Shown here in pieces: positions 986-20,012 of a DNA stretch of 21,788 bases. Source of the DNA: Promethearchaeota archaeon (lineage in GTDB: Archaea; Asgardarchaeota; Lokiarchaeia; Sigyniarchaeales; SOKP01); contig JBHLNZ010000047.1 of assembly GCA_048941015.1 (NCBI GenBank), forward strand, positions 1 through 21,788. The letters run 5' to 3'. The position numbers were made by a program, and so were the translations under genes. Under the pieces are notes generated by a model. The model saw only the letters and a list, made by a program, of their open reading frames with translations, did not search any database and had not been told where the DNA came from. The first letter of the stretch is position 1; the number at the start of each line of letters is the position of its first letter.

Positions 986-2329
986 ATGAAAGATAAAATT
1001 AATTCTCCAAGCAAGGTAAAAAATAAAAAGCTACTGAGGGTAACTAAAATCGGTTCAATGAATGTATTTTTAATTTTGCTATTAGGAATTGCTGGTCAAA
1101 TTGCTTGGGTTGTAGAAAATAGTTGGTTTAATACTTTTGTTTTTGATGAAATAACCCCTAATCCATGGCCTGTAGCATGGATGGTTGCTGTAAGTGCGAT
1201 TACAGCAGCCTTTACAACATCAATGATGGGTGCGTTAAGTGATCGTACACGTTCAAAAATGGGAAGAAGACGCCCTTATATATTGTTCGGTTATATAATT
1301 TGGGGTATAAGTACTGCGGTATTTCCTCTAGTATCACTTATTAAAGTCATCGGAATTGCCATTGTTATGATTATTATAGCTGATGCAATCATGACTTTTT
1401 TCGGATCAACAGCGAATGATGCAGCATATAATGCATGGATTACGGATATAGGGGACTCTAGTAATCGTAACCGTATTTCTAGCTTGAATAATATTACAGG
1501 TTTAGTTGCCTTGCTCGTTTCTATAGGATTAGCAGGATTTATTATCGATATATATGGATACTTTATTTTTTTCTACATTTTAGGAGGGATAGTCTCTATT
1601 AGTGGATTAATTGCGGGACTTATCCTAAAAGAACCAAAAATTCCATTTGAAAGTAATAACTCTCATAAAAAGTTTTGGAAAGAATTCTCAGAATTATTAT
1701 CTTGGAATGAGATTCGTAAAAATAAGATTTTATATCTTCTATTTTTTAACATGGCTATTAGCGGGATTGCTAGTCAAATTTATTTCCCATATCTCTTCAT
1801 TTATTTCGAACATTACTTGGGGTTAACAAAATCGGAAATAAGTATTATTGGTGGACTTATCATAGGTGGTTCTACTATAGCAATAGTTCTTATAGGTTTT
1901 ATTAGTCATAAATTTAATCGGAAGTCAATATTAATTTTAGGAACTGTATTAGCTGCTTTACTTTTATTTATTTTGGGATTAGTTATAGATTTATGGCTTT
2001 TAGTAATTATATATATGTTTCAAACCATTTTCAGTATGTCTGCTGGATCTGTACATGGTGGATGGTTACAAGATAAATATCCTGAAGGAGATATAGGTAA
2101 ATTTCAAGGCATTCGCTTGATATTTATGGTTCTTATTCCAATGATTGTTGGACCAATAGCTGGTTCCACAATAATCACGCAATTAGGGATCCCAATTATA
2201 GAAAATGGTGAATCTGGATTTATTCCTACACCACCATTATTTATGATTGGTGCATTAGTTTCACTTTTAGCTTTAATTCCATTATTCTTTATCAAGAAGA
2301 TTGAAGGAGAAATTCATTTTAATAAATAA
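986..2329 (+). CDS. MFS transporter (sugar/GPH-like)
   Basis: About 12 hydrophobic helices and MFS motif A (GALSDRTRSKMGRRRPYIL). Starts 33 bp after the GH2 gene on the same strand. Confidence 0.9.
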   Translation: MKDKINSPSKVKNKKLLRVTKIGSMNVFLILLLGIAGQIAWVVENSWFNTFVFDEITPNPWPVAWMVAVSAITAAFTTSMMGALSDRTRSKMGRRRPYILFGYIIWGISTAVFPLVSLIKVIGIAIVMIIIADAIMTFFGSTANDAAYNAWITDIGDSSNRNRISSLNNITGLVALLVSIGLAGFIIDIYGYFIFFYILGGIVSISGLIAGLILKEPKIPFESNNSHKKFWKEFSELLSWNEIRKNKILYLLFFNMAISGIASQIYFPYLFIYFEHYLGLTKSEISIIGGLIIGGSTIAIVLIGFISHKFNRKSILILGTVLAALLLFILGLVIDLWLLVIIYMFQTIFSMSAGSVHGGWLQDKYPEGDIGKFQGIRLIFMVLIPMIVGPIAGSTIITQLGIPIIENGESGFIPTPPLFMIGALVSLLALIPLFFIKKIEGEIHFNK

Positions 2330-2399
2330 AGAGATCAATTATTTTAATTAATAAGAATCTATAAGTAAAATAAAAAAAATTGTAGATATTTAAAATTGT

Positions 2400-2909
2400 T
2401 TATTCTCTAATTTGAACTTTTGGTTGAATTTTTGAAGCTCCACCGAAATTAGTTATAACAGGACAATGGGAAAATACCTTTTCCATAAGCTCGTCAATTT
2501 TTTCTTTAGGGGCATTCGCTTTTATTCTTATGACAGGTTCTAATTTATCATAACCCGCGAGTTTTGAATCATCAATTCCAAATATAGCACCAAGGTTGAT
2601 ATGGCCTCTTGAAAAAACTTTCAACTCTTCAATTTTAATATCCATAATTTTTGCCCAGAATTTTGTGACAGCAATAATACAGGCTCCAATAGATGATAAG
2701 ATGACTAATAATGGTGATGGTCCTATATTAGTTCCGTCCAATCCACCAGGAGCGTCAATAAGCAACTCAAAAGGATCACCACCTGGATTTCCCATTTTAC
2801 AGTTTACTTGCATCCCATCAGATAACATTTCACATTCTATATTAAAATTTTTTTCCCCAGCATTCCAATCAGCCTTGATGGCTTCATAGGTTTCTTTAAA
2901 ACTTGGCAT
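2400..2909 (-). CDS. OsmC/Ohr family protein
   Basis: D.PGGLDGTNIGPSP motif followed by two Cys in the family contexts (IGACI and HCPV). Confidence 0.85.
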   Translation of the reverse strand: MPSFKETYEAIKADWNAGEKNFNIECEMLSDGMQVNCKMGNPGGDPFELLIDAPGGLDGTNIGPSPLLVILSSIGACIIAVTKFWAKIMDIKIEELKVFSRGHINLGAIFGIDDSKLAGYDKLEPVIRIKANAPKEKIDELMEKVFSHCPVITNFGGASKIQPKVQIRE

Positions 2910-2946
2910 ATTAGATCATTCTGACTTTTTTGTTAATGAATTAGAA

Positions 2947-2968
2947 TAAATGAATATTTATTCATTTA
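2947..2968. promoter_or_regulatory. Inverted repeat, candidate transcription-factor operator in the divergent osmC/TIR intergenic region
   Basis: TAAATGAATA, a short T spacer, then TATTCATTTA. Overlapped by the direct repeat TTAGAATAAA (about 2941-2950 and 2966-2975). Confidence 0.4.
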
Positions 2969-3099
2969 GAATAAAATGACTTCTATTTTAAATCTAATTG
3001 TTATGATCCTTTTCAAACATTTCATTGATGTTTTATATAAATCTTTTTATACATCAACGTCATAATTAGATTTATTAATCTTCTTTTACAAAGTGAAAA

Positions 3100-4746
3100 T
3101 TGATGGCGAAAACAAGAACGATTATTTTAAATCTTATAATAATAGGTATAGCAATTGCTGTCATCTTGATTATCGTGGATATCACTACCAATTTTTTTGG
3201 TAATAGGGATGAGCTTCTCCGTTTTTTTAGTCCTTTCCTGGATATGGAGAGCTTTTTATCGATATTTAATATGATTTTTGGTCTATCACATATTCCTCTT
3301 TCAATTATTTTTAGTATAATTCTTATCTGGAAAAGGCATAAAATAAAAGTTTATCCATTTGTCATAATCATTTGGATTTATCCATTACTTACTTTTCTAC
3401 CTTTATTTATACCAATAATGATGGGTCCAGTTGATATCTATGAGATGTATACAACTTTCTATTCTTACTTATTTGTAAGTTTTCTTACAATACTTTTACC
3501 TGCATTAATTGTTACAATTTTAGCATTTTTATTCAAAGGAAAGAAAAAAGAAAGAAAATGGGAAAGAGTAGGAGAAATTAGTATTAGAGCACCAACAGCT
3601 ACGGTAAGTTTTCCATTAGAAAGGGAATTAATATTTATTAGTTATGCAACAGTGGATTCTAATTATTTTCAAATTCCAAAAATTACGCGAATATTGACTA
3701 GTTATCCAGAAATTGATGAAATTCTTTATTGGGAGTCAGATATGCACGATGATATTTATAGATATATGGATACCAATCTACAACGATGTAAAGTAGTACT
3801 TCTATTTTGCTCTAAAAATTCTCTTTATTCCGAAGCAGTCAAGATGGAATGGAGTTCAGCATTAAAATTAAATAAGAGGATTGTCCCTGTATTTGAAAAC
3901 CCAGATGACATACCTGCTTTATTGACAACCAAATTAGGAGTTCAATTTAATGCGAATGATCCTTATTCTTCAATTGAAGATATTTACAATATGATATTAA
4001 AGAAATTAGAAGTTGAATCAGTTAGAGAATTTACCCGATATATTATTCCAAAATGGATTAAAGCAGAGGATTTTTATCGTCAATTACCTCTTGAAAAGAC
4101 AGTTGAAGAAACCTTAAGTTTTGAGAGTGATTATCCTTCAAGTGAATTAGGCATCCATATTGGTTTAATTCTACAGAATAATAATTTTCATGTTCCAGGA
4201 CTGAAAAAAGCTCTAAAAGGAAAGAAAAAGAAAAAAAAAGAGACTTCTGAATTAACTGAGGAGTCTGAATTTATAAAATTCACTTCATTTGCGGAATTGC
4301 GAGATGATCCAGAAAATATTGCAATTTTAGTTAAAATTGAAAAGATAACGGATGATAGTAGTAACGTTTTACTTAATTTAAAAGGAAAAAGAGATTGGGT
4401 ATTAAAAGAAATCTTGAAAGATATCGATTTAAAACTAGTTGAATTAAAAAGCAAAACAGAGCTTATTCGTAATTATTCCGGAAATGTTATTTCTTTAATG
4501 AAAGATATTGATGATATCGAAAGATTTTTAAGAAGATATCTCGGTTCAAGTATTAAAAGCATTGAAGAGCTTATCAAACAATATAAGAATAAAGAAATTG
4601 ATGAGGAAGAATTTATTATTAAAGGTACTCAATCTGTTGGAAAAGATTTTATTATCGTGTTTCTAGGAAATATTTCATTAATACTGAAGGAAAAGAAACA
4701 AATCTTAGAGAGTAAACCACCTAATCAAACTCAAATTGTATTCTAA
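3100..4746 (+). CDS. Multi-pass membrane protein: about 4 N-terminal TM helices + TIR domain + C-terminal domain of unknown function
   Basis: Four hydrophobic segments in aa ~8-145, then a basic stop-transfer (KGKKKERK). The TIR starts IFISYATVD (nt 3631) and continues LLFCSKNSLYSEAVKMEW and IVPVF. Start is TTG 3100 or ATG 3103. Confidence 0.85.
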   Translation: MMAKTRTIILNLIIIGIAIAVILIIVDITTNFFGNRDELLRFFSPFLDMESFLSIFNMIFGLSHIPLSIIFSIILIWKRHKIKVYPFVIIIWIYPLLTFLPLFIPIMMGPVDIYEMYTTFYSYLFVSFLTILLPALIVTILAFLFKGKKKERKWERVGEISIRAPTATVSFPLERELIFISYATVDSNYFQIPKITRILTSYPEIDEILYWESDMHDDIYRYMDTNLQRCKVVLLFCSKNSLYSEAVKMEWSSALKLNKRIVPVFENPDDIPALLTTKLGVQFNANDPYSSIEDIYNMILKKLEVESVREFTRYIIPKWIKAEDFYRQLPLEKTVEETLSFESDYPSSELGIHIGLILQNNNFHVPGLKKALKGKKKKKKETSELTEESEFIKFTSFAELRDDPENIAILVKIEKITDDSSNVLLNLKGKRDWVLKEILKDIDLKLVELKSKTELIRNYSGNVISLMKDIDDIERFLRRYLGSSIKSIEELIKQYKNKEIDEEEFIIKGTQSVGKDFIIVFLGNISLILKEKKQILESKPPNQTQIVF

Positions 4747-4946
4747 ATTCAATTTCTTTTAATATTTTTTATAAAATATTTAATAAAAATAATAATTAAA
4801 GTTATAATTTCTCAATTTTCTTATTTCTTTTAGTTATTACATTTGTGTAAAGATTTTTAAAGATATATAACATAATCAATAATTAACAATCCAATTAATT
4901 AACTTAATTGTATAAAAAATTTTCAAGCTAAATTTGGTGCATTTCA

Positions 4947-6590
4947 TTGAAGAAGGGTAAGATATTATTTTTTAGTTTATATATTTCTGGACTTATTTTA
5001 TTACTATTTATACCCCTTATTTGGGGAACATTATTTTCATCCTCGTGGTTTTTTCATTTAGGAGATTCATTTAGCTCAGTAGCAATATCTTCTGATGGTG
5101 AATATATAATAGCTGGGGCTTTTAATAGTAGAGTATATCTTTTTGATAAAGATCGTACAAAACCACTATGGTCTTATGAAACGGGTCATGAAATAACTTC
5201 AGTAGCCATTTCTTCTAATGGTGATGATATCGTTGCTGGTAGTAGAGATCGAAAGGTTTATTTGTTCCATAGGTCGGTTTCCACGCCTATATGGAGTTAT
5301 GATACTGGAGCAGATGTGTTATCTGTTGCAATATCTTCTGATGGGAATTATATCGTATCCGGAAGTGAGAATGGCAATGTTACTCTATTTGATAAATCCA
5401 GTTCTACTCCCTTATGGAGCAATTCGACAGGATACGAAGTAAATACTTTAGTTATCTCATCTGATGGACAAAATATTGTTGCAATAGGACAGTTTTTTAC
5501 ATTCTATTTATTCAATAAGACAAATCCTATTCCTGAACTTAGTTATTCTCTAACCGATTACCCTATTTCTATAGCGATAAGCTCAGATGGAAAATCTATT
5601 GTCGCTGGAACTGCAGATGATAAAGTATATTTATTTAGCAACTCTAGTTCTACTCCTCTATGGACATATAGTGGGTACGACGAAATTCGTTCCGTGTCTA
5701 TTTCCTCAAACGGACAATATATTGCGGCGGGAGGTTTAGGTCAATATGTATATTTTTTTGAAAATTCAAGTTCCATCCCATTGTGGACCTATAGAACGTT
5801 TAGTAATGTAGAATCTGTTTCTATATCATCAAATGGAGATTATTTAGCTGCAGGTACTTTTGGCTCTGGAGAACAACAAAAATCTTATTGTTTTCATAAA
5901 TCAAGTCAATCTCCTTTATGGATTGTCCAAGGTGGAGGAAAAACTGCAATTTCCTCAAATGGAAAATACATTGCCTCGGTACCAGGCCTTAAATTATTCT
6001 TCTTTGAAGTTGAGAGCCAATTTAATCTTTCTGATTTTAATACTTATACCATGATTGTTTTGACCATTGGGGGTGTGGGATTAGTCATTTCTATAATTGT
6101 TGTTGTTGCAAGAAGGAAGAAACTAAAAGCTAGAGGCATTCGAGTATTTATCAGCCATGCTATAGATGATTTCAGTAAATATAGAATAGCAGAGATAGCT
6201 AAGTACTTAGAATCCCATCCAGAAATTAATCATGTATATTACTGCGAAGAAGACCTTACGGGAAATATAGATGACTGGATGAAAAAAACCGTTCCAAGAT
6301 GCCAACTTTTAATATTTTTCTCAACAGAAAATTCTTTAAAATCAGAAGATTGTATGAATGAGTTAAAAATAGCACGCAAGCTTAATATTCAAATTTCACC
6401 TATCTTAGGTGTTAATTTAAGATGGGAAGACTTAGGAAACTTAAACATTAATCGGGAACTCGGGCAAGAATTTGATCCTATGGAATTTGAAAAATTTAAA
6501 GAAAATATCTATAATTATATCATTAAGTTCGCACAAGATCTAGAAAAGGAAATTCTTGAGAAAAGGAAGTCTAGAAAAAATAAAACATAA
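4947..6590 (+). CDS. Receptor-like protein: N-terminal signal/anchor + 8-repeat WD40/PQQ-like beta-propeller + TM + TIR
   Basis: Eight ~41-aa repeats (SVAISSDG.YI.AG....VYLF......PLWSY). TM MIVLTIGGVGLVISIIVVVA is followed by RRKKLKAR. TIR RVFISHA...STENSLKSEDCMNEL from nt 6141. TTG start. Confidence 0.88.
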   Translation: MKKGKILFFSLYISGLILLLFIPLIWGTLFSSSWFFHLGDSFSSVAISSDGEYIIAGAFNSRVYLFDKDRTKPLWSYETGHEITSVAISSNGDDIVAGSRDRKVYLFHRSVSTPIWSYDTGADVLSVAISSDGNYIVSGSENGNVTLFDKSSSTPLWSNSTGYEVNTLVISSDGQNIVAIGQFFTFYLFNKTNPIPELSYSLTDYPISIAISSDGKSIVAGTADDKVYLFSNSSSTPLWTYSGYDEIRSVSISSNGQYIAAGGLGQYVYFFENSSSIPLWTYRTFSNVESVSISSNGDYLAAGTFGSGEQQKSYCFHKSSQSPLWIVQGGGKTAISSNGKYIASVPGLKLFFFEVESQFNLSDFNTYTMIVLTIGGVGLVISIIVVVARRKKLKARGIRVFISHAIDDFSKYRIAEIAKYLESHPEINHVYYCEEDLTGNIDDWMKKTVPRCQLLIFFSTENSLKSEDCMNELKIARKLNIQISPILGVNLRWEDLGNLNINRELGQEFDPMEFEKFKENIYNYIIKFAQDLEKEILEKRKSRKNKT

Positions 6591-6777
6591 ACCTTTCACG
6601 AAAAAAAAACTTGAATGAATAATAGAAAACTATCATTTTAATTCACTTCTTTTAAGATTTAATTTTACAATAATTCTTTATGCTTTATTTTGAAAATTGA
6701 GATAAACAAAAGCATTAAATAAAAGTTTGTCAAATACTGAATATTAAAAATTATAATTAAAAAGCGGAATCTTAAGT

Positions 6778-9700
6778 ATGTTTAATAATAACCTGAAAAA
6801 AAAGTTTAATAAAAAAACATTGGCTCTCTTCTGCATTTTTTTAATGATCTATGTAGCAATGTTCTTCATAGCCTCACATAGAAATCTCTTAGATCAAAAT
6901 GGAAATTCAGATATACAAGACTTTAACTTTCCAAAGTCTAGTGCCCAATCGATTTCACCTGTTGAACTTGGTCAATATTATGATGATAGTAATTCTTCTA
7001 GAGATGTATTTATAAATGGAGACATTGCATATGTAGTAGATTTTCAAAATGGCCTAGAAATTATTAATATAAGTGATCCTGGTCATCCAACAAAATTGGG
7101 TAACTATACTACAAGTTCATGGGCCTTTAATGTTGTTGTTTCGAATAATATTGCATATGTAGCTATAGGATACGGATCATGGGATAGAAACATGGAAATA
7201 ATAAACGTTTCAGACCCAAATAACCCTGTTTTACTATCTACTGCTATAGATACCCCAATTACGTCTGGGTCAGACATTTTTGTTTCTGGTGGAATTGCTT
7301 ATATAGCAGATTATGCGGAGGGTCTTAGAATCTATAATATAAGCGATCCATCAAATCCACAATTTCTAAGTAAACTTGGTGATGCGAGCAATTATTCAGC
7401 CGGTATATATGTTTCAGGCAACATTGCTTACTTAACTGAAGTTGAAGACGGAATGGAAATCATTGATGTAAGTGATCCATTAAATCCTATTGAAATTAGT
7501 AATTTTAATGATGGAGGTAATTATTGGGATGTATTCATTTCTGGAGATTTAGCATATGTAACAGATCCATATGGAGGACTTAAGATTATTGACGTGAGTA
7601 ATCCAAAACAACCTAAAAAGCTTGGGAGTTTTTATGAGAATGATGCATCTAGAGGTATTTTTGTTGATGGAAATATTGCTTTTTTATCAGATGGAAGTCA
7701 AGGAACGAAAATAATTGATATTAGTGATCCCTATAACCCAACTAAATTAGGAAGCTATTATGATGGTGGTTCTTCACAAGCTTCTTTTGTTTCAAGAGGT
7801 TTACTTTATGTTGCTGATAGTAATGATGGATTGGAAATCATTGATATCGGATATTCTAGTGGACAATGGTTAGAGCCATCCTTAGTAGGTAAATTTGGAG
7901 ATGCATATAATAATAGTCAAAATGTAGTTGTTTCAGGAGATATTGCTTACGTTTCGGATGATTCAGATGGTTTGGAAATAATTAATGTAAGTAATCCCTA
8001 TAATCCTTCACTATTAGGTAAATTTGGAGATGGTTATAATAATACTCTGAGTGCATTCATTTCTGGAGATTTAGCATATGTCGCAGATGAATACGACGGT
8101 TTAGAGATAATTAACATTACTGATCCTACAAATCCTTATGAGATAGGATATTTTGATGATAGTGGAATAGTTACTAATGTATTCGTTTCAGGAGGTTTAG
8201 CTTATTTAACAGACGCGATTGATGGTTTAGAGATAGTTAATATTACCGATCCCACAAATCCTACAGAATTGAGTGAACTAGGGACTATAGGATCATGGTG
8301 TATTGATATTAATGTCTATGGCAATATTGCTTTTGTAGCAAGTGAGGGCAGTGGTATAGAGATAGTTGATGTGAGTGATCCGAGCAAACCTGTTGAAATA
8401 GGAAATTTTTCATACGGTGTAAGTGGTTGGGGTAGTGGTATTCATATTTCAAATGATATTGCATATTTTTCGGATGTAGCAGATGGTATAGAAATAGTAG
8501 ATGTCAAAAACTTGACTAATCCTTCTTTATTAGGAATATTTGGTGATGATCATAACGAATCTAGAGATATTTGCGTTTTTCGGGATATTGCTTTTGTTGC
8601 TGATGATACAGATGGTTTAGAAATAATTGATGTTAGTGATCCTAGCAATCCTATTGAAATAGGGGAATTTAATGATGGTGGAATAACAAAAGGAGTATAT
8701 TTTTCAAGAAATTTAGTATATGTAGCTGATAGAACTCATGGATTAGAGATTATCGATATTGGATTAGATAATGATGATGATGGATTGACAAACGTAGGAG
8801 AATATTTTATCCATTCCACTAATTTAACAAACCCAGATACAGATGGCGATAATATTAATGATTATGATGAAATAAACACCTATTCTACTGATCCTAATGA
8901 TGCTGATAGTGATGATGATAATTTAGAAGATGGTTTAGAATTAACTTATAATACAGATCCTAATGATGGAGACAGTGATGATGATGGACTACTTGATGGT
9001 GACGAAATTAATATTTATTCTACTGATCCGAATGATGATGATCATGACGATGATGGTATTTTTGATGGAGAAGAAACAATAGCAGGCTTAGATGGATATA
9101 TAACCGATCCAACAGATAATGATTGCGACGACGATGGATTGTTAGATGGAGCAGAGACAATAACATATCTAACTAATCCATTAAATGCAGATTCTGACTA
9201 TGACGATTTACCTGATGGTTGGGAAGTCCAATATTCACTCAATCCAAATTCACCTAATAGAAATGAAGACCCAGATGTAGATGGATTAACAAATTATGAA
9301 GAATTTCAGCATGGAACGGATCCCAGATTAGAAGATACCGATGGAGATGGATATTCAGATGGCGCTGAAGTAGCTGCTGGTACAGATCCTCTGGATCCTA
9401 ATAACTTTCCATTCAGTATTTGGGATTTTTTTAGAAGATTTGGATTATTGATAGGAATTGCTGTTGTCTCTGTAGCAATTGTAGCTGCGGTTGCTATTCG
9501 ACGGAAATCAATCCAAGCTAAAAAGCTCCGAGTTTTTATAAGCCATGCTGTTGATGATTTTAGAAGTTATAGAATAGCTGATATTGCTAAATTTCTTGAA
9601 TCACAAAAAGAAATCTCTCATGTATATTACTGTGAAGAAGATTTAGTAGGAAATATTGATGACTGGATGAAGAAAACCGTACCTCGTTGTCAACTCTTAA

Positions 9701-9981
9701 TTTTCTTTTCGACAGATAAATCATTAAATTCAAATGATTGTATGAATGAAATAAATCTTGCTCGAAAACATGGTTTACAGATTACTCCTGTCTTAGGAAT
9801 CAATTTAAGATGGGAAGACTTAGAAAAGTTAAATGTCAATAGGGAACTTGGAAAGGAATTCGATCCGATGCAATTTGATAAATTATGTAAGGAATTATAT
9901 GCTTACGCTTTGAAGTTCAAAGAAGATTTAGAAAAAGAAGCTCAAGAAAAAAAAACCGATAAAAAAAGACGGAAAAAATAA
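6778..9981 (+). CDS. Receptor-like protein: signal/anchor + 14 LVIVD repeats + 9 TSP3-like Ca-binding repeats + TM + TIR
   Basis: 14 copies of V.VSG.IAYVAD...GLEII(D/N)VSDP..P and 9 copies of D.D.DG(L)..G.E. TM FGLLIGIAVVSVAIVAAVAI followed by RRK. TIR RVFISHA...SNDCMNEI from nt 9529. Confidence 0.9.
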   Translation: MFNNNLKKKFNKKTLALFCIFLMIYVAMFFIASHRNLLDQNGNSDIQDFNFPKSSAQSISPVELGQYYDDSNSSRDVFINGDIAYVVDFQNGLEIINISDPGHPTKLGNYTTSSWAFNVVVSNNIAYVAIGYGSWDRNMEIINVSDPNNPVLLSTAIDTPITSGSDIFVSGGIAYIADYAEGLRIYNISDPSNPQFLSKLGDASNYSAGIYVSGNIAYLTEVEDGMEIIDVSDPLNPIEISNFNDGGNYWDVFISGDLAYVTDPYGGLKIIDVSNPKQPKKLGSFYENDASRGIFVDGNIAFLSDGSQGTKIIDISDPYNPTKLGSYYDGGSSQASFVSRGLLYVADSNDGLEIIDIGYSSGQWLEPSLVGKFGDAYNNSQNVVVSGDIAYVSDDSDGLEIINVSNPYNPSLLGKFGDGYNNTLSAFISGDLAYVADEYDGLEIINITDPTNPYEIGYFDDSGIVTNVFVSGGLAYLTDAIDGLEIVNITDPTNPTELSELGTIGSWCIDINVYGNIAFVASEGSGIEIVDVSDPSKPVEIGNFSYGVSGWGSGIHISNDIAYFSDVADGIEIVDVKNLTNPSLLGIFGDDHNESRDICVFRDIAFVADDTDGLEIIDVSDPSNPIEIGEFNDGGITKGVYFSRNLVYVADRTHGLEIIDIGLDNDDDGLTNVGEYFIHSTNLTNPDTDGDNINDYDEINTYSTDPNDADSDDDNLEDGLELTYNTDPNDGDSDDDGLLDGDEINIYSTDPNDDDHDDDGIFDGEETIAGLDGYITDPTDNDCDDDGLLDGAETITYLTNPLNADSDYDDLPDGWEVQYSLNPNSPNRNEDPDVDGLTNYEEFQHGTDPRLEDTDGDGYSDGAEVAAGTDPLDPNNFPFSIWDFFRRFGLLIGIAVVSVAIVAAVAIRRKSIQAKKLRVFISHAVDDFRSYRIADIAKFLESQKEISHVYYCEEDLVGNIDDWMKKTVPRCQLLIFFSTDKSLNSNDCMNEINLARKHGLQITPVLGINLRWEDLEKLNVNRELGKEFDPMQFDKLCKELYAYALKFKEDLEKEAQEKKTDKKRRKK
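6990..8763 (+). repeat. LVIVD protein-repeat array (2 x 7 blades)
   Basis: 14 repeats counted by hand. Repeats 7 and 14 share the distinctive ending SR(G/N)L.YVAD...GLEIIDIG. Boundaries are approximate. Confidence 0.8.
8767..9400 (+). repeat. Acidic TSP3-like calcium-binding repeat stalk
   Basis: DNDDDGLTNVGE, DTDGDNINDYDE, DSDDDNLEDGLE, DSDDDGLLDGDE, DHDDDGIFDGEE, DCDDDGLLDGAE, DSDYDDLPDGWE, DPDVDGLTNYEE, DTDGDGYSDGAE. Confidence 0.85.
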
Positions 9982-10061
9982 ATCTATTATTTTTTATTTA
10001 AAATAATTCATTTTTGTTTTAAATTAAGAATTAAAATAAAATAAAGTAAAATTTAAAATTT

Positions 10062-11792
10062 TTATAAGACGCCTGCATCTTTTAGAATTTGTTTGTGATC
10101 AAAAGCTAAATCCATGGTTTTAACTTTTTCAATGGGAACTGCTTCGGCAACCTTTGCATCATCTCCGCCTGCTAATAAGGAGAGATCTTTAACTAACCTG
10201 CATTTAAAAGCAGTTGATACAATTCTTCCTCTCGGGTCTCGACCTTTTTGATCATAGGTACCTATTTTTCTCACTACTTCAACAGCAAGATTAGTTTCTT
10301 CTCTTACTTCTCTCACAATCGCCTGTTCCGCATTTTCGTTATATTTTATGAAACCACCTGGTAATGCATACTTACCCTTATAAGGATGATATTTTCTCTT
10401 AATTAATATTATATTTCTATTATCATCTTCTATAACAGCATCGACAGTATATCCTTTCTCTTCCACTTTTGCTCTAGCTCTATGAAACATAAAATAAGTT
10501 AACGTACCAATAAACATCAATCCAATGACCGTTGTTGCTATTAAATACGCCATAACCTCAAATGTGGTCTCTGAAAGATTTGTACCTATTACTAATACAT
10601 CGAAAAAGTCTTTTACAATTCCAGCACTTAAGATGATATTCACTAGATATAATATCCTTGTAGTAACTTTTTGATTCTTCTCATTTCTTTGAAGATAAAA
10701 TTCTTGCATAGAGTCGTATAATATTTTGAATTTCTTATTTACTCTCTCTATAATTGTTTCAATGCGATATATCTTTATAAGGTGTGTTAATACTCTTGTG
10801 TAGTGCTCGCGGGGGTTCCAATCTAACTCACTGTAAATAAGACTCATTTTAGTTTGAATCATTCCCCGTAAAAATCTAAGATTATTCATCTTATGTTCTA
10901 TGGTTTCCAAACTCATAAAAACATCTGAATAGCGTTTCATGAATAAGATATCTAATGAATTGTTAATCGTCATAAGCGCAAAAAGGACTGCACGCATTTT
11001 TGGTGTGATATCTAATACATGTTCTTTTATATAGAGAAATTCTGTCTTATAATTTTGTTCTGCCATGTAGATAAATCCAGAATTTCTTTGGATATAATGA
11101 AGTTCAGAAAGACGATTAGAGAAATTATTTTTGATTCTTCTTTCAAAAAGTTCGTCTGTATAATCACCCCATTGTCCTGCATATAATCGTGTCCAATATC
11201 CAAGTATTTTTTTATATTTTTCTATATTTTTTGTATCCCATTGGACTTCTATAGGGCTAACCTTACTTGATACTACAAAAACATATATTGGACTCTCAGT
11301 ATCAAGAAGTAAAAACTCATTTTCTCTTCTATTACTGTATTCTTTAAGCATGTCAAGAACAATAATTGGTATTTCTTGGATTAAGTCCGGTGTAATCCTT
11401 TCTTTTTTATATGGTTCATTTTTAAAGTATTCAATTTCAAATTTAAAATATCCTAGCGTATTATATATCAAATCACGATAATCTTCAGTATAAGCCCTAT
11501 TTTCGTCAGTATAAGGAAAATTTTGGAAGAAAGGCTCCCAGTCACATTCTATAGATATCGACTTAGCCATTTCTCTTAAAATTACCTTTTTCTCTTCAGC
11601 ATGTGGATATTTCTCTAAAAAAGTGAAGGCTTTTCCTAGATCAACATCATTATGATTCTTCAATTTTTCTAAAAGGAATGTTTCTATTTCTTCCGCCTTA
11701 GTTTCTCCAATAAATTCATTTGTATTTATGAAAGCACTGACATACCAAAATTCTTTTCCATAAATAAAACGTAAATTTTCTTCCATTTTCAA
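10062..11792 (-). CDS. Membrane protein with a large soluble N-terminal domain, long helix, 2 TM helices (CorA/RMD1-like) and a C-terminal Nudix (ADP-ribose pyrophosphatase-like) domain
   Basis: Nudix box GFIKYNENAEQAIVREVREETNL matches GX5EX7REUXEE. RDPR, GDDA and LAFDH motifs are present. Two hydrophobic helices precede the Nudix. Start is TTG 11792 or ATG 11786. The CorA-like assignment is an inference from architecture. Confidence 0.8.
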   Translation of the reverse strand: MKMEENLRFIYGKEFWYVSAFINTNEFIGETKAEEIETFLLEKLKNHNDVDLGKAFTFLEKYPHAEEKKVILREMAKSISIECDWEPFFQNFPYTDENRAYTEDYRDLIYNTLGYFKFEIEYFKNEPYKKERITPDLIQEIPIIVLDMLKEYSNRRENEFLLLDTESPIYVFVVSSKVSPIEVQWDTKNIEKYKKILGYWTRLYAGQWGDYTDELFERRIKNNFSNRLSELHYIQRNSGFIYMAEQNYKTEFLYIKEHVLDITPKMRAVLFALMTINNSLDILFMKRYSDVFMSLETIEHKMNNLRFLRGMIQTKMSLIYSELDWNPREHYTRVLTHLIKIYRIETIIERVNKKFKILYDSMQEFYLQRNEKNQKVTTRILYLVNIILSAGIVKDFFDVLVIGTNLSETTFEVMAYLIATTVIGLMFIGTLTYFMFHRARAKVEEKGYTVDAVIEDDNRNIILIKRKYHPYKGKYALPGGFIKYNENAEQAIVREVREETNLAVEVVRKIGTYDQKGRDPRGRIVSTAFKCRLVKDLSLLAGGDDAKVAEAVPIEKVKTMDLAFDHKQILKDAGVL

Positions 11793-12016
11793 TTGCCCTC
11801 AAATTAATTTTATTAGACAAATGATTAAATTATTATTAAATTGTTATTCTATTTATTACTTTTTTTTCTTTCTTTTTTCTTCATAAATTTTGTTATATTT
11901 ATTTAAACCATTAAAAAAAAATTAATTGTTTTAAAAAAACAACTTTATATACTAAAAAAAAGATAATTCTATTCAACATTTAAAATTTACAACCACGTAT
12001 AAAAGTGAAAAATTAA

Positions 12017-12466
12017 ATGAGTGAAAGTAAAGTAAAATCATCTAATAAAATATTAAATCTCTTGTTAATAATTTTGGGACTTCTTTTTATCTTTAGAGCT
12101 GTTTTAGACTTTCTATTATGGGCGGGATTAATTGTACCCGAGTTTTTAGAAGATTTTAGCACTGATTTGGGATCCGCAGCGGCATTATCGATTTTTGGAA
12201 GTCAAGGTTTAATCTCCATAGCGTTAGGCTTCTGGAGTATTGTAGCGGGTATTGGAATGTTTAAAGAAGAAGAATGGGCAATGGGTCAAGCACTCGTTAT
12301 TCTAAGTATAATGGTAATTTCAGGTATCTCCCCAATAATAAGTTGGATCACGAATCCTACAGCATTCGATATACAATACTGGCCAAATTATATCATTATA
12401 GTAGCCTTTCTGGTCGGTTTAATCGGATTTATCTGGTTGCTAGTCACCCGTAAGAGATATGATTAA
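12017..12466 (+). CDS. Small 4-TM membrane protein of unknown function
   Basis: 149 aa with four hydrophobic helices. A TTTATATA box lies upstream at about 11944-11951. Confidence 0.8.
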   Translation: MSESKVKSSNKILNLLLIILGLLFIFRAVLDFLLWAGLIVPEFLEDFSTDLGSAAALSIFGSQGLISIALGFWSIVAGIGMFKEEEWAMGQALVILSIMVISGISPIISWITNPTAFDIQYWPNYIIIVAFLVGLIGFIWLLVTRKRYD

Positions 12467-12647
12467 ACTAATGAAATCCCCAAATTTTTAATTCTTTTTA
12501 TTTTAATATTTAGATCAGGCTTTAACGTATTATTATATTCCTAAATTTATTTCTACTTTTAAATTTTGTAAACTTTATACAAAATGGAAGCAAATTTTCT
12601 CTTTATTGGGCTTTTAAAGATTATACCATAGATTAAATAATTCTATC

Positions 12648-12690
12648 CAAAATATTTATATACCGACTCTACAAAATATTTATATACCGA
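12648..12690 (+). promoter_or_regulatory. Tandem 19-bp perfect direct repeat, each copy containing an archaeal-type TATA box
   Basis: CAAAATATTTATATACCGA at 12648-12666 and 12672-12690, with TTTATATA at 12655 and 12679. Ends 61 bp before ATG 12752. Confidence 0.6.
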
Positions 12691-12751
12691 ATATAGAATA
12701 TTTGGTAATTAAATTTAGCAAATTCAATAAACCTATTAAAGGTGTTTTTCC

Positions 12752-15700
12752 ATGGAAATGGAATTACCAGAGAAAAATTTAAAGAAAAGTTTTGAATATC
12801 CCCAGCATTTGTATCCCAAAAGGAAAGGTCTCGCAAAAGCATTTCACATGACTCAGAGTTTTGGACATACTAGTGATGTAACTTCAGTTGTGATCTCTCA
12901 TAAAAAAGATTATATTATTAGTGGGTCTAAAGATAAAACTTTAAAAGTTTGGGACTTTACAACCGGAAAATTATTGAGAACAATAGAGGCTCATAATTCT
13001 CCAATATTTTCAGTAGCAATTTCGATGGATGATGCTTATGTCTTTACATGCTCTTCAGATCACTTAGTAAAAGTTTGGGGATTAAGAGCAGGGCATCTTA
13101 TTAACGAATTTAAAGAACACACTGATATAGTTACATCATTAAAAGTGACTCCTGATGGAAAAAGTCTCATTAGCGGTTCTAAAGATAAATATGTAATCGT
13201 ATGGGACATCTTAAATGCAAAACCTATTCATAAATTTCAACATAAGAGCGGTATATCTTCAATTGCCATAAATAAAGATGGAAGTATTTTAATTTGCGGT
13301 GATGATGATGGAGAAATTACAATATGGGATTTGAATAAAAACAAATTTCTCCGTACAATTAAAGGACATTCAAGTGAAATAACTTCATTATCGATTTCAC
13401 CTGACACAAAATACTTTGCCAGCGGATCTGATGACAAAACTGTAAGACTCTGGGATCTTTCAAAGGGAAAACCTATCTATATTTTCAACGATCATTCTGA
13501 AGCGGTTCGAACTGTAGCTATATCTCCACTGGGGAATATGATAGTTAGTGGCTCTGATGACAAAGCAATTAAATTATGGGATTTAAAAACCGGTAACATT
13601 CTTAGAACGTTAAAAGGCTATACGGAAAGAGTCTTATCTATAGCATTTTCTCCCGACGGTAGATACATCGCAACAGGTTCATCAGATCATAATGTTATGA
13701 TTTGGGAGATAATGGAAGGAAAATTGGAAAATACTATAAATGCCCATACCAATGATGTAAATGTAGTTTCTATTTCTCCAAAGGGAAATTTTGTCGCATC
13801 TGGTTCTAGCGATAATTCTATAAAATTATGGGAGATTAAAAATCAAAATCTAGTAAGGAGCTTTACTGGACATAAGAAACCAGTTAATTCAATCGCATTT
13901 TCTCCTGATGAGAACTATATTATTAGCAGTTCCTTAGATAAAGATGTTATTATTTGGGATATTAGAAATCCGGTACCACTAATAAAAATAAATAAGATAG
14001 GAGCTAATGTAAATTCAGTCGTGTTTACCCCCACCACGAATCAAATAATGGTGGGCTTAAGTAATAATTACATAAAAATGTGGGATCTACAATCTAAAGA
14101 ATTTATTTGGGAGTCAAAAGAACATAAAGGTGCTATAACGTCAATAAAATTCTCTCCAAATGGGAGATATTTTGTGACTGGATCAGAAGATAAACACATA
14201 AAAATATGGGATTTCACATCAAGAGATGTAATTAAAGATTTAAGTGGTCATAAAGGAAAAATATTATCTCTTGATATCTCACCAAATGGTGCAAAAATTT
14301 CTAGTACTTCTGATGATAAAACAGTAAAAGTTTGGGATTTCTATACCGGTGAATTAATCACTAGTCTTGAAAACCATACTGATATAGTTTCAAGTGTTTC
14401 ATATTCTCCAATAGGAAATTGTTTCATCAGCGGTTCTGATGATAAAACAATTAAAGTATGGGATAATTCAAGATATGAATTAATTCAGTCCTTTGAGGGT
14501 CACCAAAAAGCAGTATCTTCTATTGCCATAACTCCTGATGGAAAGTATGCTATAAGTGGATCTCAGGATGGAACACTAAAATTTTGGTCTCTTACATTTG
14601 GTGGTGTATTTAAAAATATAAAAGGGCATTCGGAGAGTGTAAATTCAGTAGCAGTCTCATCTGACAAACGATATGCTGTTAGCGGATTATCTAATAAATC
14701 CCTAATAGTTTGGGATCTCTTTAATGGTAATCTAATTAAAACCCTAAAAGGCCATGAAGATATAATCAGTTCAGTTGCATTTTCACCTGGAGGAAAATTC
14801 GTGGTTAGCGCATCATATGATAATACCTTAAAAATTTGGGAAATTAAAAGTGGTGAAACATTATGGAATTTAAATGGTCACGACAAAGCTGTTACCTCTG
14901 TAGCTGCTTCTCCCGATAAAAATTATATTGTTAGCGGCTCAAAAGATAATACTGTTATAATATGGGAACCTTCTACTGGTAAATTAATAAAAAAGCTGAA
15001 AGATCATTCAAGTGCTGTGACATCAATTGATATTTCTCCAAACGGAGATCTTATTGTGAGTGGTTCTGAGGATAACTCTATCAATATTTGGAATATGAAA
15101 AAAGGGAAACTTCTTCGTACTCTGAAAGGTCATACTGACGTTGTTACATCAGTTGTATTTTCTCCTGATGGAGAATTTATTGCAAGTGGCTCAAGAGATC
15201 AAACTGTAAAATTATGGAAAGTCAATACCGGTGAACTAGATTATTCTTTTGAAAGAATAAATAGCCCAATTAAGACAGTAACGTTTTCATCTGATGGTTC
15301 ATATATAGCTTGCGGTACTGAAGATAATTTTGTGAGAGCATGGGACTTTATTGAGAAGTATCAAAGTTCATATTATTATTTGTCAAAAGTTAATTCAGCA
15401 AAATTCATTCCAAATACACACCAAATTATTGCTGGTTATAATTCGGGTGATGTTTTAATATGGGATTTATTAATGGAAGAACAAGAAGAACTTTTAAAAG
15501 AACTTCGAGGAAAATTATCTGATGTTGAAGATTTGATTGATAAAAATAATTATTCAGAAGCTATAGAAAAATTGAATTACGTTTTAGAGACAGCAAATAT
15601 GTTTAACTTTGAAGAGATAAGATCAATTGCCTTCGAAAAACTAAAAAATTTAAGAGATCCTGAAGAAACTTCAAGAAATATTAGAAGTATTTTGGAATTT

Positions 15701-16417
15701 GAATTTAAAAATCAAAGAAAAATCACTAAAGCAGAAATGGTAAATCAACTTAATATTGAAATTTCCGAAACAGATTATTATACAAATTTATTATCAAGTA
15801 CCATAAATTATGAGGCTTCTGAGACCCCAGATTTAGAAAGGTTAGGAACGAAAATATTAAAAAAATTCATTAATCCTTCATTGTATGATTTAATAATTCA
15901 ATTAGAGTATGATTATAAGCTAGCCTTTAAAATTGGTAAATTTCTATTAGATAGAGGCTTTATAAAACAATTTAGAAATTATCCTTTAGTTGGAGAAAAA
16001 GTAGAAACCGGGAAAAAACTAGAAGATTTAATTATTTTTATAAGTTATGCAACAGTCGATGCAGAAGTATTTAAGGTTAAGGACTTAGCATCAAGATTAG
16101 AGTCATTTAAGGAAATTAAAAAGGTGTTATATTGGCAAGAAGATATGAAAGATAATATTATCAAATATATGAGTGATAATCTTGGAAGATGTAGTGCAAT
16201 GATATTACTTTGCTCAGAAAATGCTCTAGATTCAACTCCCGTAGATAAAGAGTGGACTGCTGCAGATATGATGGGTAAACCTATCATCCCCGTATTTCTT
16301 AACCCAGATCATATCCCTCCGCTTCTTAAATCAAGACTAGGGCTTGAATATGATTTGGTAGATTTTGAGAGAAATGTAGTACAACTTCATAATTTGATTT
16401 TAAAGAAGTGTGTATAA
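12752..16417 (+). CDS. Soluble WD40-repeat protein (21 repeats) with helical linker and C-terminal TIR domain
   Basis: 21 GH...WD-type repeats counted by hand (nt ~12860-15466). No hydrophobic helix. TIR IFISYATVD (nt 16034)...CSENALDSTPVDKEW...PIIPVF. Confidence 0.92.
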   Translation: MEMELPEKNLKKSFEYPQHLYPKRKGLAKAFHMTQSFGHTSDVTSVVISHKKDYIISGSKDKTLKVWDFTTGKLLRTIEAHNSPIFSVAISMDDAYVFTCSSDHLVKVWGLRAGHLINEFKEHTDIVTSLKVTPDGKSLISGSKDKYVIVWDILNAKPIHKFQHKSGISSIAINKDGSILICGDDDGEITIWDLNKNKFLRTIKGHSSEITSLSISPDTKYFASGSDDKTVRLWDLSKGKPIYIFNDHSEAVRTVAISPLGNMIVSGSDDKAIKLWDLKTGNILRTLKGYTERVLSIAFSPDGRYIATGSSDHNVMIWEIMEGKLENTINAHTNDVNVVSISPKGNFVASGSSDNSIKLWEIKNQNLVRSFTGHKKPVNSIAFSPDENYIISSSLDKDVIIWDIRNPVPLIKINKIGANVNSVVFTPTTNQIMVGLSNNYIKMWDLQSKEFIWESKEHKGAITSIKFSPNGRYFVTGSEDKHIKIWDFTSRDVIKDLSGHKGKILSLDISPNGAKISSTSDDKTVKVWDFYTGELITSLENHTDIVSSVSYSPIGNCFISGSDDKTIKVWDNSRYELIQSFEGHQKAVSSIAITPDGKYAISGSQDGTLKFWSLTFGGVFKNIKGHSESVNSVAVSSDKRYAVSGLSNKSLIVWDLFNGNLIKTLKGHEDIISSVAFSPGGKFVVSASYDNTLKIWEIKSGETLWNLNGHDKAVTSVAASPDKNYIVSGSKDNTVIIWEPSTGKLIKKLKDHSSAVTSIDISPNGDLIVSGSEDNSINIWNMKKGKLLRTLKGHTDVVTSVVFSPDGEFIASGSRDQTVKLWKVNTGELDYSFERINSPIKTVTFSSDGSYIACGTEDNFVRAWDFIEKYQSSYYYLSKVNSAKFIPNTHQIIAGYNSGDVLIWDLLMEEQEELLKELRGKLSDVEDLIDKNNYSEAIEKLNYVLETANMFNFEEIRSIAFEKLKNLRDPEETSRNIRSILEFEFKNQRKITKAEMVNQLNIEISETDYYTNLLSSTINYEASETPDLERLGTKILKKFINPSLYDLIIQLEYDYKLAFKIGKFLLDRGFIKQFRNYPLVGEKVETGKKLEDLIIFISYATVDAEVFKVKDLASRLESFKEIKKVLYWQEDMKDNIIKYMSDNLGRCSAMILLCSENALDSTPVDKEWTAADMMGKPIIPVFLNPDHIPPLLKSRLGLEYDLVDFERNVVQLHNLILKKCV

Positions 16418-18099: not shown

Positions 18100-19239
18100 T
18101 TAATTTTTTTTATCAAGTGCTTCTAATAAATAATCTGTTACATATCTACAAGGTCTTTCTGACTGAGTTTTATAGTTTACATATCTATAGTTAAATACAC
18201 ATAAAGGGCATGATGTTATAATTTCTTTAGATTTTAATTCTTGAAATATTTTTGAACCAATCTTAATTGAAATACTACTATCCACACCTCTTATACCTGA
18301 ACCTGCCCCACAACAAGGTGTAAAATCACGATTATCGTTTAGTTCTTCAACTTTAGTACTAATCTTTTTCAATAATTTCCGTGGTTCATCATATATTTTA
18401 AGATTTTTTAACTTTCTTCCCATACGACAAGGATCATGATATGCTATTTTATTATTTAATTTAATAAATTGAAGTTTATCTTCCTTTGTAAGATCATCAA
18501 TAATTTGGATAACGTGCTTAACATCTATATCCCATCCAGAAATATATTTTGGATAAACTTTATTGAAAGCGTATAAACATCCAGCACAGGTGACTATAAT
18601 ATTTTTTATACCTATATTCTTAAATAATTTGTAATTGTCTTCGAAGATCCGTCTTGCAAGGTCTAAATCTCCAGCAGAATAAACATACTCGCCACAACAC
18701 GGTTCTTTCTCTAATATCTTAAAGTCATAATTTCCTGCTTTTAATAATTCATAAGATGCACTTGCACTCTCTTTAACTCTAAAAGAAGACATGCAACCTA
18801 AAAATAATAAAGTATCAGAATTGGCTTCTTCATATAACTCTTTTTTTCGAAAATCATCAGGGATCCAATCTAACCTCTCTTCCGGATTACCATTTACACT
18901 ATTATCTCTTTCAACTATTCCTTTTATAATTTTGTTATGAATTTCTAAAGGAGCTTTATTTTGGCTAACTAACTTGATTTTAGATGAATGTATTACCTCG
19001 GAGATGGGGATACTTTCCGTACAAAATCCATCACAGATACTACATAAAGTACAAGTATATAATCCTATAATTTCTTCTTCCGTGATAGGCTCATTAATAA
19101 AAACTTTTTTAGCAACTTTTAACCTTCCATTTGGTGATTTTAATTCATCATTTGTCACTAAAAAGGTATCGCAATAATCCATACACGTTTTACAATCAAC
19201 ACAAGATTCTATTTCATTTAATATCTCACTATCATTCAC
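18100..19239 (-). CDS. (Fe-S)-binding oxidoreductase, HdrD/GlpC-like (4Fe-4S dicluster + two CCG domains)
   Basis: CVDCKTCMDYC and CTLCSICDGFC, then FLGC, EPCCG, TCAGC, YHDPC, PCCGAG and SCPLC. Confidence 0.9.
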   Translation of the reverse strand: MNDSEILNEIESCVDCKTCMDYCDTFLVTNDELKSPNGRLKVAKKVFINEPITEEEIIGLYTCTLCSICDGFCTESIPISEVIHSSKIKLVSQNKAPLEIHNKIIKGIVERDNSVNGNPEERLDWIPDDFRKKELYEEANSDTLLFLGCMSSFRVKESASASYELLKAGNYDFKILEKEPCCGEYVYSAGDLDLARRIFEDNYKLFKNIGIKNIIVTCAGCLYAFNKVYPKYISGWDIDVKHVIQIIDDLTKEDKLQFIKLNNKIAYHDPCRMGRKLKNLKIYDEPRKLLKKISTKVEELNDNRDFTPCCGAGSGIRGVDSSISIKIGSKIFQELKSKEIITSCPLCVFNYRYVNYKTQSERPCRYVTDYLLEALDKKN

Positions 19240-20003
19240 ACAATATCATCTAAAGAAACATTATATAGCTTATCTATGCTACTATACCCTACTATTTCAT
19301 CTCTTAAATAAATCTTGAATGGTAATATTAATTCCTTATAGGGTTTTAGAATATTTAGTAAAGTAATGTGTTCAGGTTTTTGAAACTTGTCTTCATTTTC
19401 TTCACCAACTCCTTCAGAATATTGATATTGTTGTAAAACAAAATCACCTCTAAAATGATTATTCTTAAGAAAAGACAATATTTTATGGATGTCTTTTGCT
19501 TTCATGAGATTTTCTACATAAGTGGTTCTGATCTCAAATTCGATTTGTTTTTGTTGATTTACGATATTATAAGTCTCTAAAATTCTCTCTGGATTTATAT
19601 CGATTCCAGTAATTTCTTTTAATTTATTTTTTTTTAAAGGACCTTTTAAATCTAAAGCTATTCTATCAATAAAAGGTAATATTTTTTTAATAATCTCTGG
19701 ATTAGTTCCGTTGGTATCTATATTAATAAATTTCCCTAATTTTTTAATCTCCTTACATAATGTTAATAAATCATTTTGTAGAGTAGGTTCTCCCCCAGAT
19801 ATACTTACTCCACTTACTAGCATATTACTCTTTATTTGATCAATTAATTCATCAATTTCCCAATTTCGCCCCACTTCTTTATTAAGTAGAAATTTATTGT
19901 GACAAAATCCACATTTTAAATTACATCCAACTGTAAAGATAACCATAGAAGACTTGTTAGGAATATCTTTTGTTGATATATCTATAATTCCTCCTACTCT
20001 CAA
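19236..20003 (-). CDS. Radical SAM glycyl-radical activase (anaerobic ribonucleotide reductase activating protein-like)
   Basis: IFTVGCNLKCGFCHN (CxxxCxxC), SGGEPTLQ, IDTNG, IALDLK and EIRTT. Overlaps the next gene by 4 bp (ATGA). Confidence 0.88.
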   Translation of the reverse strand: MRVGGIIDISTKDIPNKSSMVIFTVGCNLKCGFCHNKFLLNKEVGRNWEIDELIDQIKSNMLVSGVSISGGEPTLQNDLLTLCKEIKKLGKFINIDTNGTNPEIIKKILPFIDRIALDLKGPLKKNKLKEITGIDINPERILETYNIVNQQKQIEFEIRTTYVENLMKAKDIHKILSFLKNNHFRGDFVLQQYQYSEGVGEENEDKFQKPEHITLLNILKPYKELILPFKIYLRDEIVGYSSIDKLYNVSLDDIV

Positions 20004-20012
20004 AGAATCAAC

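Follow-up and report, generated by a model that had tools for sequence, protein, structure and literature searches.

We analysed a 21,788-nt stretch of DNA (hereafter the window), which is the entire contig C114 of a Loki-type Asgard genome (3.59 Mb, 144 contigs). Four genes for proteins with TIR domains (TIR-A to TIR-D) lie in it around a gene for a membrane protein that ends in a Nudix domain. Sequence comparison points to the TIR and membrane Nudix proteins as parts of an undescribed signalling or defence module based on nicotinamide adenine dinucleotide (NAD). A real functional link between the TIR genes and the Nudix protein is highly probable. It is well supported because TIR genes recur beside the Nudix gene in one clade of relatives (clade A, which holds the window protein), because the WD40-TIR gene (TIR-D) occurs together with that clade, and because a distant family shows a pairing of its own. 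The complete model, in which TIR sensors make a messenger that acts on the membrane Nudix protein, as part of an accessory module for NAD-based conflict or signalling in Lokiarchaeia-type Asgard archaea, is given a probability of about 0.5.

Relatives of the N-terminal body of the Nudix protein were found in 110 of the 161 genomes of the class. Sixty loci, with up to 10 kb on either side, were scanned with a TIR hidden Markov model (HMM) that recovers every Pfam TIR match of the home genome. In the tree, clade A comprises 21 rows with an SH-aLRT of 100, and its sister, clade B, has 33. A TIR gene was located 51-864 bp from the Nudix gene in 16 of the 21 clade A loci. None of the 32 clade B loci counted alone had a TIR neighbour, the single exception adjoining a clade A copy, and none was seen at the seven outgroup loci. 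With a background of about 2 TIR genes per Mb in six genomes, about 0.04 would be expected per locus. A second sampling from public contigs, which overlaps the first and is not independent of it, gave TIR-adjacent loci in 15 of 25 cases for clade A and 0 of 55 for clade B. Linkage of the homologues of the Nudix fusion to TIR genes, which the sequence-only reading had named as a check, is upheld for clade A and fails for its sister clade.

Two contexts of the clade A gene were distinguished. In one it lies in a conserved position flanked by a hexapeptide transferase gene and nadA; in the other it has been relocated beside a CCG/Fer4 gene, as here. The CCG/Fer4 gene of the window (18100-20909, minus strand) has counterparts that adjoin the relocated clade A gene in seven relatives (cluster 20). 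The tm4, WD40-TIR and Nudix genes are found in at least four orders or orientations among relatives. Zero to four TIR genes adjoin the Nudix gene per relative, and these partners change, with WD40, propeller, LVIVD, beta-helix/NosD or periplasmic-binding-protein ectodomains. Two large TIR receptor genes next to clade A were recorded: one of 1404 aa with NosD/beta-helix and periplasmic-binding-protein (ANF-receptor-like) domains (L048:14372-18583, genome G142) and one of 1431 aa with a long beta-helix array (L058:10836-15128, genome G066).

Clade B genes sit in a conserved block (L050-L093, for example L085:1-19991) that comprises two HGD-D genes, LSM, Roadblock/LC7, ThiF and hexapeptide transferase genes, the membrane Nudix gene, and genes for NadA, an LRR protein and an HTH protein. 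At L055 both paralogues are present in that block, tail to tail. Adjacency to nadA was considered as functional evidence and set aside, as it belongs to a syntenic block of about ten genes that is confined to one family and absent from outgroup loci. The distribution fits a history in which a membrane Nudix protein related to NAD metabolism gave rise to two copies by duplication and TIR systems recruited one of them. At two TIR-free loci (L047:5885-14494 of genome G140 and L100:11190-13220) P-type cation ATPase genes flank the membrane Nudix gene; L047 has two of them and a gene for a VTT-domain protein. The gene is otherwise confined to Asgard archaea, and three further contigs with 46-68% identity (L139, L186 and L199; JAHWIT010000125.1, DATKTW010000116.1 and DATKTP010000151.1), labelled Woesearchaeota, Nanopelagicaceae and Deferrimicrobium, are probably mis-binned.

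Among the 135 genomes of the family, a search with the linker region found TIR-D orthologues in 18, and the clade A Nudix gene is present in 29. As many as 17 of the 18 genomes with a WD40-TIR orthologue carry clade A, and the two genes are adjacent in 12. The gene tm4 (12017-12466, plus strand) encodes a small protein of 149 aa with four transmembrane (TM) helices, which is outside any recognised family. In 9 of 20 clade A loci of relatives it immediately precedes the WD40-TIR orthologue. In G140 the tm4 and WD40-TIR pair is on another contig than the Nudix gene, and tm4 therefore belongs with the WD40-TIR gene and not with the Nudix gene. This pair is the sole recurrent partner of the Nudix gene. 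No Pfam, NCBIfam or PADLOC match was obtained for tm4, and the Atlas returned only unnamed clusters, mostly of Promethearchaeota. A second tm4 paralogue of 143 aa (E 4e-39) is located on contig C47 at 5331-5759 (plus strand), a contig on which the TIR HMM has no match.

Homologues of the membrane body were also found at 25-31% identity in another family of the same order (f3). In its genus g20, a homologue of 447-448 aa that lacks the Nudix domain is followed by a SIR2_2 protein of 940-945 aa, with a gap of 3-19 bp or an overlap (L101:9365-13546, L114:1672-5850 and L115:1-2453). The SIR2 domain of this protein matches ThsA-type and Argonaute-associated SIR2 models, and the pair looks like a two-gene module. 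On contig C17 of genome G010 (L119:2-5457), genes for a SIR2-TPR protein, a 255-aa TIR protein, a 634-aa Nudix fusion about 30% identical to the window protein and a zinc-ribbon TIR protein lie side by side. Family f3 thus pairs the membrane-body family with TIR and SIR2 genes independently, and the membrane body goes with two unrelated folds that cleave NAD, whether or not it has a Nudix domain. The fact that it pairs with both TIR and SIR2 is the strongest argument for the functional link and for the importance of the membrane body itself.

The membrane Nudix protein of the window is encoded at 10062-11792 on the minus strand (576 aa), and its true start is likely the ATG at 11786. It consists of an alpha/beta cytoplasmic domain (aa 1-260), a helical stalk (261-383), a TM hairpin (384-431) and a C-terminal NUDIX domain (aa 448-571, nt 10077-10451, Pfam E 2e-19). 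The fusion is present in a single copy and is the sole one of the six Nudix genes of the home genome that is close to a TIR gene. Compared with the consensus Gx5Ex7REUxEExGU, its Nudix box reads G480-x5-E486-x7-R494 E495 V R E498 E499 T N L, so that just the final G is replaced by N. The residues GG479-480, E486, R494-E495 and E498-E499 and the motifs RDPRG and LAFDH are 100% conserved in clades A and B. From this conservation of the Nudix box, RDPRG and LAFDH in both clades, the domain is very probably an active hydrolase. Its type, which the sequence-only reading had taken to be directed at ADP-ribose (ADPR), was confirmed. The NCBIfam models for NadM-Nudix (6e-19) and NrtR (5e-14) match, both below their equivalog cut-offs, and 2qjo, 2qjt and 3gz8, the last with ADPR, are nearest in the PDB by sequence. 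Foldseek gave E values of 1e-10 to 1e-9 for the domain, with a root-mean-square deviation (rmsd) of about 2 Å to the ADPR-bound Nudix domain of NrtR.

The N-terminal body of 445 aa was compared by structure. AlphaFold 2 models were confident (pLDDT 82 at full length; 85 for residues 1-445, with a pTM of 0.78) and show an alpha/beta domain, long helices, and a 60-residue helix that continues into TM1, followed by TM2. The body has 16 invariant residues, many of them polar, and the conserved cytoplasmic domain includes the invariant D210, R227, E230 and H232. No Pfam family, CorA (PF01544) included, matched residues 1-437 at E <= 1. With the full-length model Foldseek returned Nudix domains alone, and with residues 1-445 nothing at E <= 1e-3; CorA chains headed the list of weak matches (best E 7e-3). 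In a search independent of Foldseek, CorA of T. maritima and CmaX were the sole structures that aligned along the full length of the model (Z 7.3-7.4, about 230 residues). In a second alignment CorA, MRS2 and CmaX took ranks 1-18 (Z 7.1-7.8, rmsd 6-8 Å), with 220-243 residues aligned between model residues 11 and 440. Z values below 8 may reflect a common arrangement alone. The Atlas placed the body in a CorA-like cluster at 0.87, below 0.95, and this is no more than a lead. The end of TM1 lacks the GMN motif; the loop reads IGTNL and is not conserved in the family, G391 alone being nearly invariant. Conservation is lowest in the TM hairpin, where clades A and B have 2 of 62 positions in common. 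The structural likeness is suggestive without being decisive. Because GMN is absent and the hairpin poorly conserved, we describe the protein as CorA-shaped without assigning it to the CorA family, and consider a selective pore unsupported; any channel would be hypothetical.

All four TIR genes are co-oriented within 13 kb and have Pfam TIR_2 domains, as the sequence-only reading had proposed. The Nudix and tm4 genes are situated among them, and all six genes were recovered where it had placed them. Its description of a different N-terminal module in each TIR protein agrees with Pfam, TM prediction and repeat analysis. TIR-A (3100-4746, plus strand; 548 aa) likely starts at the ATG at 3103. 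It has four TM helices (aa 8-26, 59-77, 88-106 and 124-142), with 7 Lys/Arg after the last one, and then a TIR_2 domain (aa 178-286, nt 3631-3957, E 6.5e-12, 46.4 bits). A C-terminal helical extension of about 245 aa follows, which was absent from the earlier description. Orthologues of TIR-A with 544-548 aa adjoin the Nudix gene in L043 and L053. TIR-B (4947-6590, plus strand; 547 aa) has an N-terminal anchor, an ectodomain of eight ISS[DN]G blades with Pfam propeller, WD40 and PQQ_2 matches, a TM helix (aa 369-387) followed by a basic stretch with 7 Lys/Arg, and a TIR_2 domain (aa 400-486, nt 6144-6407, 30.4 bits); its orthologues are in L043 and L049. TIR-C (6778-9981, plus strand; 1067 aa) has an anchor, at least ten LVIVD repeats (Pfam E 7e-85), TSP3 repeats (TSP3_bac), a TM helix (aa 889-907) and a TIR_2 domain (aa 919-1006, nt 9532-9798). 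Membership of TIR_2 was judged by the PF13676 gathering score of 28 bits; TIR-C reached 27.4 bits as a whole protein and 32.4 bits in the genome search. TIR-D (12752-16417, plus strand; 1221 aa) has a WD40 region that a helical linker joins to a TIR_2 domain at the C-terminus (about aa 1095-1196, nt 16034-16342, E 3e-13, 50.7 bits). Pfam scored 19 WD40 stretches in it, and the coding period of 126 nt gave about 21 blades, or three propellers. No TM helix was predicted in TIR-D. The TIR domains of TIR-A, TIR-B and TIR-C should be cytoplasmic because 6-7 Lys/Arg follow the last TM helix. The proposed layout of surface and cytoplasmic sensors is in agreement with this, as TIR-B and TIR-C each have an ectodomain, a TM helix and then a TIR domain predicted to lie in the cytoplasm, and TIR-D is predicted to be cytosolic.

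Each TIR domain had been said to keep a Glu at the catalytic position (VKMEW, CMNEL, CMNEI and VDKEW in TIR-A to TIR-D). Alignment of 11 TIR domains of the genome put these residues in one invariant column. In a profile search of the PDB the column aligned with the Glu of VKKEI in 9m0n, a TPR-TIR protein (E 1.7e-5), and with that of CWDEL in Cat1; phmmer with a single TIR domain found no PDB match at E <= 1. The four TIR proteins would by this criterion be of the NAD-cleaving type and would act as NADases.

Twelve TIR genes were found in the home genome with Pfam TIR_2 and 14 with a lineage-specific HMM built from those 12; eight of the 14 encode membrane proteins. Ten lie outside the window, scattered on ten other contigs, and the occurrence of four within 13.3 kb has P about 1.8e-4 by simulation. 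Tandem duplication, which had been named as an alternative origin of the cluster, accounts for part of it. The TIR domains of TIR-B and TIR-C are 71% identical, and a direct repeat of 300 nt (6112-6411 and 9500-9799) links the two genes at 73% identity. They are local duplicates of a TM-TIR module with differing ectodomains, and the only tandem duplicates among the four. The TIR domain of TIR-D is most like those of two polytopic TIR proteins encoded elsewhere (58-60% identity), and that of TIR-A is nearest to a gene on contig C50 (49%). The cluster is more than a simple tandem duplication because three TIR lineages meet here. Contig C54 carries an LRR-TIR gene (1685-3751, minus strand; L111) for a protein of 689 aa with LRR_8 (E 9e-42) and no predicted TM helix; its TIR domain (aa 493-621) was detected by the lineage HMM only.

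In the favoured model the TIR proteins would be sensors: two single-pass receptors, one polytopic membrane protein and one cytosolic WD40 protein with tm4. Their activated TIR domains would assemble and cleave NAD+ to an ADP-ribose-type product. This product would act on the adjacent two-pass membrane protein, which would in turn hydrolyse it. The membrane Nudix protein would be the shared downstream component, as a membrane effector, a signal terminator or both. The analysis itself shows the domain content, the conserved Glu, the intact Nudix core and a gene linkage that is kept through rearrangement. The NADase activity, the convergence of all four TIR proteins on the Nudix protein, its role as effector or eraser, ligand gating, any pore, the identity of the product and the biological trigger are parts of the model that we infer. 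A more elaborate version would resemble a Toll-like pathway, in which an extracellular ligand would cluster the single-pass TIR receptors, an ADPR-type messenger made from NAD+ would gate a CorA-shaped 'chanzyme', and the Nudix domain of the latter would destroy the messenger. We regard this version as unlikely.

Several observations weigh against the favoured model. Five clade A loci have no TIR gene within 10 kb, and all of clade A goes back to one duplication, so the 16 linked loci do not count as independent events. Related genomes in which no fusion was found also have TIR genes (12, 5 and 3 copies), and ten further ones are elsewhere in the home genome. TIR proteins can therefore function where no Nudix gene adjoins theirs. 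Clade B, whose Nudix domain is just as intact, is TIR-free and adjoins nadA. The intact catalytic residues would suit a plain hydrolase no less than a ligand sensor. The model resembles CorA only weakly (Foldseek E >= 7e-3, Z below 8, rmsd 6-8 Å), and the poorly conserved TM hairpin without GMN argues against a selective ion pore. The genes around the cluster are metabolic, and the region is no classic defence island.

The main rival to the favoured model is a clean-up role only. The TIR proteins would deplete NAD+, and the Nudix protein, as neither effector nor channel, would hydrolyse the released ADP-ribose to AMP and ribose-5-phosphate. The effect would be to curb toxicity or self-activation or to supply NAD salvage. 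The catalytic core of the Nudix domain is wholly conserved in both clades, the hairpin is not, and GMN is lacking, all of which suits an eraser; so do the nearest Nudix relatives, NadM-Nudix and NrtR, which belong to NAD metabolism, and the occurrence of TIR genes without the fusion. The position of TIR-free clade B beside nadA in a conserved block fits a housekeeping role in NAD metabolism, but this adjacency is part of a larger one-family syntenic block and is weak evidence. A plain hydrolase, moreover, needs no conserved N-terminal body of 445 aa with 16 invariant residues. The Nudix-less homologue still pairs with a defence-type SIR2, and the constant partner of the NADases is the membrane body. 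We consider a role in clean-up alone somewhat doubtful.

It is also conceivable that no functional link exists and that the site beside the clade A Nudix gene is a hotspot for TIR paralogues with fast turnover. The varying number and kind of adjacent TIR genes among close relatives, the local duplication of TIR-B and TIR-C and the single ancestor of all clade A loci would all be expected at such a site. However, just TIR genes and tm4 accumulate there, and no other variable family recurs in the clustering of neighbours. The linkage outlasts relocation to a second context and the reshuffling of gene order, the G010 fusion of an unrelated lineage (30% identity) is again adjacent to TIR and SIR2 genes, and some of the genomes that hold both WD40-TIR and clade A hold them apart. 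A hotspot alone is improbable. In a reversed order of events, the CorA-shaped protein would lie upstream, as a sensor or regulator that responds to ion or membrane status, for instance, and would control the TIR and SIR2 NADases as the effectors. The invariant D210, R227, E230 and H232 could bind a ligand, much as the Mg2+-sensing domain of CorA does, and P-type cation ATPase genes flank the gene at the two TIR-free loci mentioned above. Yet every TIR protein already has a large sensor-type domain of its own, and a Nudix domain of the ADPR type is best explained as acting on the product of the NADases. This order is very improbable.

The window was also examined for known systems and other features. 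PADLOC on the window genes gave weak single-domain matches only. It named no known defence system for these genes, nor for the Nudix protein's N-terminal body, and returned nothing comparable to Rst_2TM_1TM_TIR, a system of DefenseFinder. The absence of ThsA, CD-NTase and Argonaute, noted from the sequence alone, was thereby substantiated; ThsB1 matched only weakly (E 6.7e-4, TIR-C). The flanks carry metabolic and transport genes (GH2-like, MFS, OsmC, amino-acid permease, CCG/Fer4, radical SAM and PfkB). Rfam and tRNA scans found no Rfam family and no tRNA in the window. A repeat search of the window returned coding repeats, the duplicate module of TIR-B and TIR-C, one weak intergenic pair of 32 nt, and nothing else. 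The members of this pair are 75% identical and lie upstream of tm4 (11948-11979) and of TIR-D (12622-12653). They may be a shared promoter element or a chance match in AT-rich DNA.

The TRPM2 channel has a C-terminal NUDT9-homology domain, a Nudix domain of the ADP-ribose type on the cytoplasmic side. The membrane protein of the window likewise has a C-terminal cytoplasmic ADP-ribose-type Nudix domain, but the scaffolds are unrelated, with 2 TM helices and a poorly conserved hairpin here and a 6-TM TRP fold in TRPM2. TIR-B and TIR-C resemble Toll-like receptors in that one TM helix connects an ectodomain of repeats to a TIR domain on the cytoplasmic side. They differ in that the ectodomains are propeller and LVIVD/TSP3 instead of leucine-rich repeats and in that the TIR domains, which have the NADase Glu, are of the prokaryotic TIR_2 type; adaptor TIR proteins were not identified. 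NadM-Nudix and NrtR (PDB 2qjo, 2qjt and 3gz8) are the closest relatives of the Nudix domain in sequence and structure. Unlike the window protein, they are soluble, serve NAD synthesis or its transcriptional control, and have neither a membrane body nor TIR linkage.

The nearest described analogues of the module are type II Thoeris and the CorA effector of type III CRISPR. In type II Thoeris, the TIR protein ThsB makes His-ADPR, which activates a ThsA effector with Macro and TM parts (bioRxiv 10.1101/2024.01.03.573942, PMC11204291). Both loci have one or more TIR sensor genes with the catalytic Glu kept, beside one gene that fuses an ADP-ribose-recognising domain to TM helices. Unlike Thoeris, the locus described here has a Nudix domain with intact catalytic residues instead of Macro or SLOG, a CorA-shaped membrane body of 445 aa, large TIR proteins with extracellular or WD40 sensor domains, and an archaeal host. 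In type III CRISPR, a CorA effector occurs with NrN/DEDD or SAM-AMP lyase (PMC10600005, PMC12255297). A divergent membrane effector of the CorA family is there coupled to an enzyme that degrades the signal nucleotide, which resembles the arrangement here. However, the window has no cas10 or CRISPR genes, the signal would come from TIR or SIR2, the degrading enzyme would be the fused Nudix domain, and the kinship with CorA is weakly supported. A full-text literature search found no paper on a module of TIR and membrane Nudix proteins. Neither 'Nudix' nor 'CorA' occurs in the text of a 2025 survey of TIR signalling that lists 29 types of Thoeris effector. Little was found in the literature on TIR signalling in archaea; two Asgard defence surveys barely mention TIR systems, and in one Asgard defence survey TIR appears in system names only.

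Messengers derived from NAD by TIR domains drive immunity in bacteria, plants and animals. If the link between the TIR genes and the Nudix protein is true, the membrane Nudix protein would represent a new effector class for TIR signalling, and surface receptors with cytoplasmic TIR domains would be present in the lineage closest to eukaryotes. A virome paper of 2026 describes a Tad2-like sponge for TIR signals in an Asgard virus whose hosts have no complete Thoeris system (PMC13700489). The module, if the link holds, could explain why such a virus carries a sponge for TIR signals. The locus offers a concrete set for testing, with four sensors of three architectures, one candidate receiver and a TIR-free sister paralogue as a natural control.

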